The translations under genes and the position numbers were made by a program. Shown here in pieces: positions 17,430 to 61,188 of a DNA stretch of 64,000 bases. Within the stretch, counting starts at the first letter, position 1; each line of letters begins with the position of its first letter. Under the pieces are notes generated by a model, which worked only from the letters and a program-made list of their open reading frames with translations, did not search any database and was not told the DNA's origin. This DNA is from a virus. Location: the IMG/VR virus record IMGVR_UViG_3300046170_000470; one strand, written 5' to 3'.

Positions 17430-17448
17430 AATAAAATTCGTATATTAC
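17418..17448 (+). promoter_or_regulatory. Host-type promoter
   Basis: TTTG-N19-TATATTAC with TCG. Confidence 0.6.
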
Positions 17449-17452
17449 AGTT

Positions 17453-18175
17453 ATGATAAATAAGAGCACTCTCACTAGCGTTATTTCCAAATATTACTTA
17501 AATGGTTTAAACAACCAAGTAAAATGGAGAATTAAAGATAATCAACTTACTATTTACGCCGGTGAATCAGGTAGAGTATGTAAAATAGAACATAATAACT
17601 TTCCACTAGAGGATGCTGAATTAGGTGTATTTGATACGCATAAACTAAGTAAATTGATATCTATTACTAATGGTGATTTAATGGTATCATTAGAAAAAAT
17701 GAAAGCGGTTTATACTAAAATTCATTTTGCTGATTCTAATTTTGATTTAACTTATTCGTTAGCTGATATTCTTATTTTAGGTAAAAATACATATTATGAA
17801 GATCCGGAATCATTTGAAATGGAACTTGATTTAGTTAGAGAAGATATTGACCATTTAATTAAAGCTAAAAGTGCATTAGCAGATGTAAATAATATGTTAA
17901 TCACTAGCAATACAGATATGGATGGTAATAACATTTGTGAATTCATATTTGGTGATAATACAGGATTTTCTAATAAAATTACCTATCAAATTAATGGTAA
18001 TATAACTAAAAATGATATTTCGATTCCATTTGATTCTGATGTATTTAAAGATATCCTAAACGCTAATAAAGACATGGATAGTGGCACACTAAAATTATCA
18101 GAACAAGGAATGTTAAAATTAAACTTCTATTCAGAAGAAGTAAATAGTGAATATTTTATAGCTAGGAATGAGTAA
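17453..18175 (+). CDS. Sliding clamp (T4 gp45/PCNA-like)
   Basis: 240 aa, beta-rich, follows polB; C-terminal 'LSEQGMLKLNF...SEYFI'. Confidence 0.7.
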   Translation: MINKSTLTSVISKYYLNGLNNQVKWRIKDNQLTIYAGESGRVCKIEHNNFPLEDAELGVFDTHKLSKLISITNGDLMVSLEKMKAVYTKIHFADSNFDLTYSLADILILGKNTYYEDPESFEMELDLVREDIDHLIKAKSALADVNNMLITSNTDMDGNNICEFIFGDNTGFSNKITYQINGNITKNDISIPFDSDVFKDILNANKDMDSGTLKLSEQGMLKLNFYSEEVNSEYFIARNE

Positions 18176-18548
18176 GAAACCAGATATGTACGCTGAAAAT
18201 AAGGTGATAATGCCATATGGGGATAGTGTTGCTGCTCCAAAAATAGAATTAGAAGATACTAATTCATGGGTAGCTAAACAAACAGTAGACGTAAATAACT
18301 ATTTAGCAACTAAATTTGCTGAATTAAAAGAAGAATATGCTAGGTTAATTTCATTATATAAATGGAATGAACTAGTAAATAAAGCTGATTTTAGTTTTAT
18401 TCCTGTAAAAGGACATATTTACTTTTTATACCAACGAGAAGATGGGAATTTGTTTTTGTCCCTTATTGAACCTGAATATTGGAACCAATTATTTGTAGGT
18501 AAAGTAAAACTAGATTCAGATAATAAATGGATAGAAGAAGAAAATTAA
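18168..18548 (+). CDS. DUF2452-like protein
   Basis: FIPVKGHIYFLYQREDG..FLSLIEP..W. Confidence 0.7.
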   Translation: MSKKPDMYAENKVIMPYGDSVAAPKIELEDTNSWVAKQTVDVNNYLATKFAELKEEYARLISLYKWNELVNKADFSFIPVKGHIYFLYQREDGNLFLSLIEPEYWNQLFVGKVKLDSDNKWIEEEN

Positions 18549-18562
18549 TATATGTATAATAG

Positions 18563-18629
18563 AACATAATATTGTAGAGCTAGGGCATGCTGTTATGTTT
18601 AAATTAAATTAACCGAGAGCTACGGCCTC
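18563..18629 (+). promoter_or_regulatory. Structured 5' leader of hsp20 (two hairpins sharing AGAGCUA(G/C)GGC)
   Basis: AACATAATA..TGTTATGTT stem; GAG-A-GC(TACG)GC-CTC. Confidence 0.6.
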
Positions 18630-18644
18630 ACAAAACTAAATGAT

Positions 18645-19061
18645 ATGAGTACATTATTCAATGAACGTACACCGTTCGACTTACTATTCCGAAACTTTTT
18701 TAAAGCAGACGGATCTTTTCAACCAACCACGTTTGACAACAAACAACCACACCCACTAGATATTTTTTATGACGAAGAAGGGCTTCACTTTGAGATTGCC
18801 TGTACTGGTCTAACTAAAAAAGACATTCAACTAGAAATAGATGGGGATCTTTTAAAAATTATCTATGATAAACCAAAAGAAGAAGAAGATTATTCTGGCT
18901 ATATCTATAAGGGATTAGCTAAACGATCTTTTAACCTAGGTTATAAAGTAGCAGCTAAATTTGAACTTGAAAGTTTATCAGCTGAAATGAAGGATGGCTT
19001 ACTTCATATTTTTATTCCAATTGCCGAATCTAAAAAGCCTAAAACCATTAAAATTAAGTAA
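18645..19061 (+). CDS. Small heat-shock protein (Hsp20/IbpA-like)
   Basis: EIACTG, YIYKGLAKRSF, AEMKDGLLHI. Confidence 0.93.
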   Translation: MSTLFNERTPFDLLFRNFFKADGSFQPTTFDNKQPHPLDIFYDEEGLHFEIACTGLTKKDIQLEIDGDLLKIIYDKPKEEEDYSGYIYKGLAKRSFNLGYKVAAKFELESLSAEMKDGLLHIFIPIAESKKPKTIKIK

Positions 19062-19131
19062 TAAGTTTTATTAAAAAAGCGTGTCCTAGCGCAATATTAT
19101 TCGTATATTCACGTCTAAATAAATAAGTTAT

Positions 19132-19455
19132 ATGTCTGAAACAAAACGAAGGAAATCAATTCAAATTATTACTGATCCTCTACTAGAACCATTTTTTATT
19201 ACAAAAGATGAATACAGTTATACTGTAAAACAAAATGTAGTATCCGATGCATCCCATTTTAGAAGTAAAGGGAATGCAAAAACTTATGAAAAATCCTTAT
19301 ATTATTATCCTAATTTTGGAGATGCTGTATCAAAAATAGCTGAGTTAAAAGCTGGAGTTGATAATTATGATGATTTAAATAGTTTTATTAACAATTATAA
19401 AGAAATTAGTAACCAAATAAAAAATTATACAGATGGCCTTAGAAGCACTATTTGA
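19132..19455 (+). CDS. Hypothetical protein
   Basis: ORF downstream of TCGTATATTCA (19101). Confidence 0.65.
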   Translation: MSETKRRKSIQIITDPLLEPFFITKDEYSYTVKQNVVSDASHFRSKGNAKTYEKSLYYYPNFGDAVSKIAELKAGVDNYDDLNSFINNYKEISNQIKNYTDGLRSTI

Positions 19456-19801
19456 TGCAGTTATAGTTAAACCAATTGAAATCGAAGAAACAACTTATGG
19501 GAATATTATTGTTCCTGACGTTGGAAAAGAAAAAAATGAAACAGCAGAAATAATCTCAGTTGGTCCAGGTAAACCCACTATTACAGGGGAATTTATCCAT
19601 ACTAAACTAAAAGTAGGAGATAAAGTTGTTTTACCTACAATGGGTTTTACAAAACTCCCATATGATGGAGAAGAGTATTATGTGGGTCCAGAAAACCAAA
19701 TCCTCGCTAGAATTACTGAAACTATTGATGTTGCAGAAATATTAGAAGAAACTAAAGAATCATTAACCGAAGAAGAAATTAAAGATTTATCAAATGAGTA
19801 A
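19433..19801 (+). CDS. groES: Co-chaperonin GroES with acidic C-terminal extension
   Basis: ALFDAVIV, GNIIVPD, SVGPG, LKVGDKV. Confidence 0.9.
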   Translation: MALEALFDAVIVKPIEIEETTYGNIIVPDVGKEKNETAEIISVGPGKPTITGEFIHTKLKVGDKVVLPTMGFTKLPYDGEEYYVGPENQILARITETIDVAEILEETKESLTEEEIKDLSNE

Positions 19802-21632: not shown

Positions 21633-21899
21633 ATGAAAACAGAATTAATTGAAGGTAAAGTGTTAATTGCTAATAGAAAGCCACCTGGGGACAGGTGGCA
21701 ATTAGCTGATGAACCAGAAGGGAGAATTTATAAAAGTATAACTGACACCCTAGAAGCGTATATGCATAAAACAGGATTTAAAGGTCATTATAGATTAGAA
21801 CCTTTAAATAGTAAATTGTATATTATAGAACAACAAGAAATAGAAATCAAACCAGAACCAATTAAAACATATAATATATATGGGGAGTTCGGAGAATAG
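21633..21899 (+). CDS. Hypothetical protein
   Basis: ORF after TCGTATATTAC (21618). Confidence 0.65.
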   Translation: MKTELIEGKVLIANRKPPGDRWQLADEPEGRIYKSITDTLEAYMHKTGFKGHYRLEPLNSKLYIIEQQEIEIKPEPIKTYNIYGEFGE

Positions 21900-56976: not shown

Positions 56977-57098
56977 ATAACATTAATTTAGCTAAGGTGA
57001 GCTACCTAATGCTTCACCCTTTTTATTCACATCAATATACGAATTTTAAATTAACCTTCCTAGTTATTTTTAATTCTTCTATTAAACCTAATAATTTG

Positions 57099-57183
57099 CG
57101 GAGAAAGAGGGATTCGAACCCCCGGAGGTGTGACCCTCAACAGTTTTCAAGACTGCCGCATTCGACCACTCTGCCATTTCTCC
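57099..57183 (-). tRNA. tRNA-Ser(UGA), no encoded CCA
   Basis: Reverse complement GGAGAAATGGCAGAGTGG...CAGTCTTGAAAACTG...GGTTCGAATCC...TTTCTCCG; long variable arm. Confidence 0.95.
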
Positions 57184-57320
57184 AATTGGGTTGAATATAC
57201 AAATAGTATTTTAGGTACCCACGCAATTTTTTATATCCTATAATATATACGTATAGATAGATGTGGGTATGTAAGAGAGAAAGAGTCGTTTTTTTCTATA
57301 TATTTATAATAAAATTAAAA

Positions 57321-57665
57321 ATGGCGTCATATACTGCTAATCAACTTTACGGTTCTGGAACTTATGCTGAGGCATTAAATGGAACTAAAACATTTCAATT
57401 TACTAATCCCTCTAATGGTTCTGCTTATTTTATACTTGAAGCAGTAAGAAATGAATTAGGTTTTTATGATTCAACTTCTAATACTGTTGCTAGTGCTTCC
57501 TATTCTTTAGGGAGTGGAATTAGTGGTTTAGTAACTTCTTCGTACATTGCTGGGGTAGCTATTGAACCCGGGGTTCATTCTATGTCTATAACTTTTGAAA
57601 ATAACACTCCTATTAGTGGGTCTATCTTAAGAACCACAGGGGAAATTTCTCTTATAATTTCCTAA
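57321..57665 (+). CDS. Ser/Thr/Gly-rich beta protein, possibly structural
   Basis: ATG 57321 after ATATTTATAA (57300). Confidence 0.6.
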   Translation: MASYTANQLYGSGTYAEALNGTKTFQFTNPSNGSAYFILEAVRNELGFYDSTSNTVASASYSLGSGISGLVTSSYIAGVAIEPGVHSMSITFENNTPISGSILRTTGEISLIIS

Positions 57666-57677
57666 AAGTAATGCGCC

Positions 57678-57761
57678 GGAGGTTTGGCTACCCGGGATAT
57701 CATTCGTATATTTACCATGTTGTGATAATGAAGTTGCAACACTAATTAAATAAAGGTTATG
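57678..57761 (+). promoter_or_regulatory. Hairpin/promoter plus 5' stem-loop plus AAAGGTTATG cassette
   Basis: TTTG-N20-TATATTTAC; TGTTGTGAT-AATGAA-GTTGCAACA. Confidence 0.75.
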
Positions 57762-58088
57762 ACAAGTACAGATGTTAAAAATTTCAGAAGTGATTTTCAA
57801 AATGCAGTTACAGAATTGCAAAAAAAGTATGGTGTTAATATTAGCACAGGTACTATCCGTTATTCAGATAGTGAATTAAGATTTAAAGTTACCGCTCGTA
57901 AAGGTAAAGTTACCCCTAAATTAACAAAAGAAGCTTTTCAAGTAGGTGATAAAGTTAAAATTAACCATAAAAGTGCCAATGGTAAAGAATGGTTAGTAGA
58001 AAAAATCATGTCTAAAAATATTAGAGTTTCAGAAATAGGTGGTTTTGGTATGGTTAGAGTTTCACCAAGTTTATTAGAAAAGCTTTAA
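57759..58088 (+). CDS. Early protein with C-terminal SH3/KOW-like domain
   Basis: FQVGDKVKI..VEKIMSKNIRV..VRVSPSLL. Confidence 0.65.
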   Translation: MTSTDVKNFRSDFQNAVTELQKKYGVNISTGTIRYSDSELRFKVTARKGKVTPKLTKEAFQVGDKVKINHKSANGKEWLVEKIMSKNIRVSEIGGFGMVRVSPSLLEKL

Positions 58089-61089: not shown

Positions 61090-61174
61090 GCCTCGGTGGT
61101 GGAATTGGTAGACACGCCGGACTTAAAATCCTGTGACCTGAAAGGTCGTGCCGGTTCGATTCCGGCCCGAGGTA
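61090..61174 (+). tRNA. tRNA-Leu(UAA), no full encoded CCA
   Basis: GCCTCGG/CCGAGGT acceptor stem, GGAATTGGTAGAC D-arm, CT-TAA-AA loop, GGTTCGATTCC; one C-U mismatch in the anticodon stem. Confidence 0.93.
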
Positions 61175-61188
61175 CATATGTATAACTG

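Follow-up and report, generated by a model that had tools for sequence, protein, structure and literature searches.

The hsp20 gene of this marine phage is bracketed by complementary arms in the untranslated regions (UTRs) at its 5′ and 3′ ends, and comparison of homologous loci indicates that the resulting clamp is an evolutionarily selected RNA pairing in more than 100 uncultured relatives of the phage. The window, by which we mean the whole 64,000-nt stretch of IMG/VR record IMGVR_UViG_3300046170_000470 that was analyzed, had been the subject of a preliminary description made from its letters without database searches, which proposed that the two flanks of hsp20 pair in two helices. Both are exact as read from the sequence (Table 1): helix A comprises 12 bp, two of them G-U wobbles on the + strand, helix B is a perfect 9 bp, and the two are split by a 4 × 1 nt internal loop, together making a predicted helix of about 21–22 bp that would close the hsp20 cistron into a loop of ~510 nt.

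Table 1. Features of the hsp20 unit and related elements, with positions numbered from the first letter of the window.
Feature	Position	Strand	Description
End of DUF2452 gene	18168–18548	+	Immediately 5′ of the hsp20 unit
Upstream promoter-like box	18553–18562	+	Directly after the stop of the upstream gene
Leader of hsp20	96 nt	+	Between the DUF2452 gene and the hsp20 start
Hairpin 1	18562–18600	+	AU-rich 8-bp stem, 18562–18569/18593–18600; its ~23-nt loop presents the GC-rich 5′ arm
5′ arm, AU-rich helix B	18566–18574	+	Pairs with 19092–19100; 85% of cells paired, four pairs changed on both sides
5′ arm, GC-rich helix A	18579–18590	+	Pairs with 19079–19090; 92% of cells paired
Hairpin 2	18615–18629	+	3 bp, bulged A18618, 2 bp, tetraloop; lies 15 nt upstream of the AUG
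hsp20 ORF	18645–19061	+	138 aa; Pfam HSP20, E = 4.6e-12
Spacer 3′ of hsp20	70 nt	+	Reaches ORF107
3′ arm, GC-rich helix A	19079–19090	+	Overlaps the −33 position of the next promoter
3′ arm, helix B	19092–19100	+	Ends 1–2 nt before the next promoter box
Promoter box of the ORF107-groES-groEL unit	19102–19111	+	Recurrent intergenic motif of the window
ORF107	19132–19455	+	107 aa; next gene after hsp20, followed by groES and groEL
Recurrent promoter-like motif	5590, 17439, 19102, 21619, 38173, 43347, 44600, 54859, 57705, 58129	+	
tRNA-Ser (UGA)	57098–57183	−	
tRNA-Leu (UAA)	61090–61175	+	
Loci with unrelated arm sequences (examples)			L018, L034, L073, L103, L115, L116, L135, L152, L169, L188, L189, L190

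The hsp20 unit and its genomic setting

Among relatives the order hsp20-ORF107-groES is constant, though the order of genes upstream varies: in L212–L218 a sliding-clamp-like gene replaces the DUF2452 gene directly upstream of hsp20, and L210 and L211 carry an extra 0.8 kb there. Where the upstream gene is a different one (L212–L218), the promoter-like box, the 5′ arm and the leader hairpins move together with hsp20. ORF107 is without a Pfam family. All relatives have it in the place between hsp20 and groES, with 23 nt of overlap with the latter; from relative to relative its identity (31–92%) is much more variable than the identity of hsp20 or of groES. A near-identity search among cultured phages gave no match. 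Judged by GroEL, Flavobacterium phage immuto (59% identity), in which groES-groEL is present and hsp20 absent, is the nearest cultured phage, and a contig of a Flavobacteriaceae MAG carries an hsp20 with 87% identity; together these matches point to marine Flavobacteriia as the probable host.

A recurrent −7-type box stands before many + strand genes of the window, preceded by CG and often by TTGG or TTTG 19 nt upstream. Promoters of the −33/−7 type are typical of Bacteroidota, and the recurrent box is similar to them. At 17439 and 21619 the boxes end 6 nt before an ATG; the messages of the sliding-clamp-like gene (17453) and of the gene at 21633 may therefore be leaderless. The box upstream of hsp20 resembles the recurrent one and is conserved in all relatives, placing the probable transcription start of hsp20 at about 18566–18568. 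A further candidate promoter within hairpin 1 (−33-like TTG at 18572, −7-like box at 18594) was not relied on; relatives lose its box and keep the pairing. The promoter after the 3′ arm, which the preliminary description placed upstream of groES/groEL, holds its position, and the gene that directly follows is ORF107, with groES and groEL coming later.

A long-range helix specific to hsp20

In both the minimum free energy and the centroid fold of 18555–19110 the helix is the outermost stem, and the fold as a whole has z = −2.7, none of 100 shuffles being as good. We screened own-flank pairing across the window with fixed-length flanks of the 108 + strand genes, taking non-neighbour flank pairs as the null. 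The strongest own-flank duplex was that of hsp20 (−34.6 kcal/mol vs −16.5 ± 3.3 for shuffled flanks), and just 0.07% of the non-neighbour pairs matched it. Because it is the best among the 108 genes and so rarely matched in the null, the long-range pairing is specific to hsp20 and no habit of the genome; the notion that every gene is clamped was rejected, hsp20 being an outlier. The next-best own-flank duplexes (−30 kcal/mol), at two small genes within 57261–58088, are apparently GC-rich palindromes of repeated promoter regions and no clamp. Complementarity at hsp20 that runs on into both promoter boxes was set aside as a by-product of their common AT-rich near-palindromic motif. We also rejected the clamp as a universal trait of phage hsp20 genes, since clamp pairing was not found at hsp20 of pelagimyophage HTVC008M or cyanophage S-CRM01.

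Pairing persists while the arm sequences turn over

Four IMG/VR scans, three of them queried with hsp20 proteins and the fourth with the upstream gene, yielded more than 200 loci and 135 distinct flank pairs. The preliminary description had named a lack of conserved complementarity in homologs as a refutation of its proposal; complementarity is kept in the 135 distinct pairs. RNAalifold predicts the long-range helix independently from a plain MAFFT alignment of 60 distinct transcripts. In the 60-sequence alignment the 21 pairs originally proposed are paired in 89% of cells, vs 30–51% when the partner is slid, and eight of them have changed on both sides, values that 0 of 500 shuffles reached. 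The arm sequence itself turns over completely: at least 15 unrelated arm sequences occur among the 135 flank pairs, all of them complementary, and own 5′/3′ pairs average −32.6 kcal/mol vs −24.3 kcal/mol for cross pairs.

Within the arm type that occurs most often, 46 of 55 sequences share one 3′ arm, and there are 14 haplotypes of the 5′ arm vs 5 of the 3′ arm. Every 5′ haplotype pairs; each of four rare 3′ arm variants is accompanied by a matching 5′ change, the drift of the 5′ arm being otherwise pairing-neutral. The overlap of the 3′ arm with the −33 position of the next promoter, already noted in the preliminary description, agrees with the recurrent promoter-like box that directly follows it, and in other arm types a canonical −33 tetramer lies inside the 3′ arm. 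The 3′ arm is probably the tighter of the two because of this double duty in pairing and in the downstream promoter. It forms no conserved local hairpin in other arm types. Across all loci most 5′ arms keep a loose core, pyrimidine-U-(A/U)-A-G-G-purine-C, despite the turnover, so the helix may carry a sequence signal besides its shape.

The geometry of the clamp is also kept. In the 135 flank pairs the median length of the main helix is 22 bp (interquartile range 20–25, range 13–34), its 5′-most paired base lies 71–80 nt before the AUG, and its 3′-most paired base lies ~2 nt before the next promoter box. The first paired base is at a median of +6 after the upstream box (range −2 to +12), so that the median helix start coincides with the position expected for transcription initiation.

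The composition of the mismatches argues that the arms pair as RNA. When each 5′ arm is set against its reverse-complemented 3′ arm and every mismatch carries the same score (Watson-Crick only), mismatches that are G-U on the sense strand outnumber A-C mismatches, which would be G-U on the antisense strand, by 103 to 16 in a first set and by 229 to 63 in a larger one. Mutation bias fails to explain the excess, because polymorphism at third codon positions of hsp20 shows C/T over A/G at only about 2:1. The suggestion, first drawn from the two wobbles of helix A, that pairing takes place at the RNA level on the sense strand is thus borne out across the relatives.

Two hairpins in the leader

Hairpin 1 is paired in 89% of cells (60 sequences), with two pairs changed on both sides; at 37 °C the isolated leader is predicted to form it with a probability of 0.95, which drops to 0 when the 3′ arm is added. 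The local hairpin and the long-range helix had been described as mutually exclusive. The hairpin does exist, competes with the helix and covaries, and the exclusion is partial because the two folds have only 18566–18569 in common, the GC-rich 12-mer lying in the loop of hairpin 1. By analogy with type I toxin mRNAs, hairpin 1 follows the pattern of a metastable displaying hairpin that would be displaced by a long-distance interaction.

Hairpin 2 is paired in 98% of cells with two compensatory pairs, and the two hairpins together are paired in 92.5% with four. The shape of hairpin 2 (stem, bulged A, 2 bp, small loop) is kept with other sequences and loops in distant relatives; it occurs a single time in the window, and a role as a repeated operator was rejected. 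An 11-nt direct repeat with one mismatch (18576–18586 and 18616–18626) gives the 5′ arm a likeness to the 5′ strand of the second hairpin. If the leader starts at 18566, the free 5′ arm is predicted to invade hairpin 2, whose probability goes down to 0.02–0.09; after clamp formation it is predicted at 0.96–1.00.

The limits of the hsp20 message

Three observations on the ends of the transcript count against an end-to-end clamp. In about one third of relatives the helix begins 0–3 nt from the upstream box or inside it, and a transcript initiated from that box would lack those bases. Covariation also extends to the 5′ strand of hairpin 1, although that strand precedes the predicted start; longer read-through RNAs are thereby implied. 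Contigs from RNA libraries bridge 18146–18652 and 18932–19475, that is, both arms into the neighbouring genes, so the message would not be strictly bounded by the arms unless these contigs reflect DNA carry-over. They come from four marine RNA libraries with related sequence, assembled as Logan contigs in which ends, strand and level are not readable and DNA carry-over is possible; contig ends and gaps in coverage are given no weight here. In three marine metatranscriptome studies, contigs of the hsp20 ORF have depths of about 50–107, vs about 9 upstream and 15–31 for those bridging into ORF107; being contigs that may include carried-over DNA, they give a weak hint that hsp20 RNA is abundant with some read-through. 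A terminator scan found no terminator-like site at 19062–19131.

Temperature and access to the start codon

The preliminary description favored a temperature- or processing-dependent switch, and its thermal half is not supported by folding in silico, where helix A is predicted at 1.00 and helix B at 0.94–0.99 from 10 to 45 °C. At 37 °C the duplex of the arms is predicted at −28.5 kcal/mol, vs −8.8 kcal/mol for hairpin 1. The start codon of hsp20 is 55 nt downstream of the 5′ arm, with its A-rich start region outside both folds. Across 135 relatives the predicted accessibility of the start site is 0.51 with the arm free and 0.50 when clamped, and control of start-site accessibility by the clamp was rejected. 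As the duplex is predicted to be stable from 10 to 45 °C and the start region lies outside it, the modeled helix is not a thermometer in the usual sense. That the element is neither ROSE nor CIRCE, as had been supposed, agrees with our searches: Rfam covariance models (E ≤ 10) gave only chance-level matches over 18000–19600, with no ROSE or other thermometer, and the CIRCE pattern, with as many as 3 mismatches allowed, gave 0 matches across the window. CIRCE, the HrcA operator, is a 9-N9-9 DNA inverted repeat before chaperone genes.

Possible roles of the clamp

We consider that the clamp most likely acts on message stability or processing rather than on temperature sensing. During transcription, the 5′ arm would be held in the weak AU-rich hairpin 1 with its GC-rich core shown in the loop; once the 3′ arm is made, the far more stable long-range helix would replace hairpin 1, so that the opening nucleotides of the 5′ UTR pair with the final ones of the 3′ UTR and the cistron is closed while the translation unit stays free. 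The closed form would shield both ends from 5′-end-dependent and 3′-exonucleolytic decay, and the outcome would be a long-lived, abundant chaperone mRNA with an unblocked start codon. We put the chances of such an end-to-end clamp, which sets the stability of the hsp20 message or protects or defines its ends, at about even, the stabilizing role and the order of folding being inferred.

The main rival is that the helix serves as a stalk for host RNase III, which would cut the two-turn helix of the arms on read-through polycistronic RNA, release the hsp20 cistron in the way that an rRNA is freed from its precursor, and generate a 5′ end for the chaperonin message that follows. RNase III needs a helix of about two turns (~20 bp or more), and the median and interquartile range of the 135 helices are about that size; hairpin 1 and part of the helix precede the predicted start, which requires longer precursors, RNA-library contigs span both junctions, and the enzyme is present in a Bacteroides control genome. 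Helix lengths spread widely around that median, however, and a phage-encoded RNase III was not found in three relatives that are 96–100% complete, so the host enzyme would be required. We regard this reading as possible though unlikely; it is compatible with the clamp, since a cut stem would still tie the ends together. A long-range attenuator or insulator, in which the helix before the next promoter stops or pauses hsp20 transcription or shields that promoter from read-through, would suit a 3′ arm that ends ~2 nt before the promoter box and overlaps its −33 position and, more weakly, the drop in contig depth after the hsp20 ORF. We find it highly improbable, as the base of the helix is AU-rich with no U tract after it, the scan found no terminator, contigs continue through the 3′ arm, and, kinetically, a stem closing a 500-nt loop would be ill suited to termination.

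Exchange between hairpin 1 and the helix could also be driven by temperature and turn hsp20 translation on or off, as the two partly exclusive, covarying folds and the frequency of RNA thermometers on small heat-shock genes might lead one to expect; such a switch is improbable, given a helix predicted to be formed from 10 to 45 °C at far lower energy than the hairpin, a start region in neither fold with a predicted accessibility independent of the clamp, and the lack of a ROSE or other Rfam match over the searched region. A DNA-level origin of the arms, as ends of a mobile cassette, recombination sites or paired operators for a DNA-binding protein, has in its favor that they form an inverted repeat flanking one gene and that the 3′ arm also bears a promoter element. 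Against it stand the sense-strand G-U excess, well beyond the polymorphism ratio, the retention of pairing through complete turnover of the arm sequence, and the position of hsp20, which precedes ORF107-groES in 25 of 25 loci found via the neighbouring gene, with no empty site among them. Because of the G-U excess, the lack of an empty site and the leader elements that travel with hsp20, a mobile cassette or operator appears very unlikely; the DNA-level reading is largely refuted, and the cassette in particular was rejected.

A more elaborate form of the end-to-end clamp, which we consider rather doubtful, is that hairpin 1 and the clamp make up a co-transcriptional "completion sensor" on a portable mRNA module, such that only full-length messages snap closed and are excised or capped at both ends. 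If so, stop and start codons would be brought close and ribosomes could recycle on the same message, and the phage would gain a burst of holdase independent of the flanking operons.

Comparison with known systems

To our knowledge, documented bacterial 5′-3′ UTR interactions are few (hbs, icaR, type I toxins) and mostly concern single genes. The hsp20 clamp combines compensatory evolution across more than 100 phage genomes with conserved geometry and a partner hairpin, on a chaperone gene whose transcription in the sea appears to be high. Bacteroidota initiate translation in an unusual way, and few genetic parts exist for them; should the clamp set mRNA lifetime or processing, it would offer them a compact, transplantable stability element and would indicate that phages tune single auxiliary genes at the RNA level, apart from operons.

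Thermometers of small heat-shock genes (ROSE, fourU, the cyanobacterial hsp17 leader) are weak local hairpins over the SD or AUG that melt at 30–42 °C. The clamp resembles them as a regulatory RNA structure involving the leader of a small heat-shock gene, but its predicted helix is long-range, very stable and clear of the start site. RNase III stalks of rRNAs enclose non-coding RNA, and the RNase III sites of T7 early mRNA are local hairpins between genes. As in the former, complementary flanks at hsp20 would enclose a functional RNA by a helix some two turns long, and as in the latter a phage polycistronic RNA might be cut into units; the hsp20 helix differs in being long-range and enclosing a coding cistron, and cleavage is hypothetical here.

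The closest parallel for the order of folding is with the fold-backs of type I toxin mRNAs (hok tac/fbi, aapA3): in Helicobacter pylori aapA3, a 5′-3′ long-distance interaction replaces transient co-transcriptional 5′ hairpins (Masachis et al. 2019, PMC6733600). We infer the same order of events for hsp20, where hairpin 1 covaries and is predicted to be displaced. The closed form of the toxin mRNAs hides the ribosome-binding site and needs processing, whereas the hsp20 start is predicted to be open in both states and the product is a chaperone rather than a small toxin ORF. For function, the nearest relative is Bacillus subtilis hbs mRNA, in which a 14-bp pairing between 5′ and 3′ UTRs is described as modulating the access of RNase Y and hence stability, with translation unblocked (Braun, Durand and Condon 2017, PMC5737220). 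By the logic of that interaction, the hsp20 clamp would protect its message. In hsp20, too, the 5′ UTR is predicted to pair, with covariation, with the 3′ UTR of the same mRNA; by comparison with hbs, its helix is longer (about 22 bp), sits at the edges of the message and comes with a displaying hairpin, and it occurs in a phage of another phylum, has no sequence relation to hbs, and is backed here by extensive covariation in sequence. Full-text literature searches returned no description of a clamp on phage hsp20. Pairing between 5′ and 3′ UTRs is already known as a kind; what is new is its conserved, geometry-fixed, hairpin-assisted form on a phage chaperone gene.
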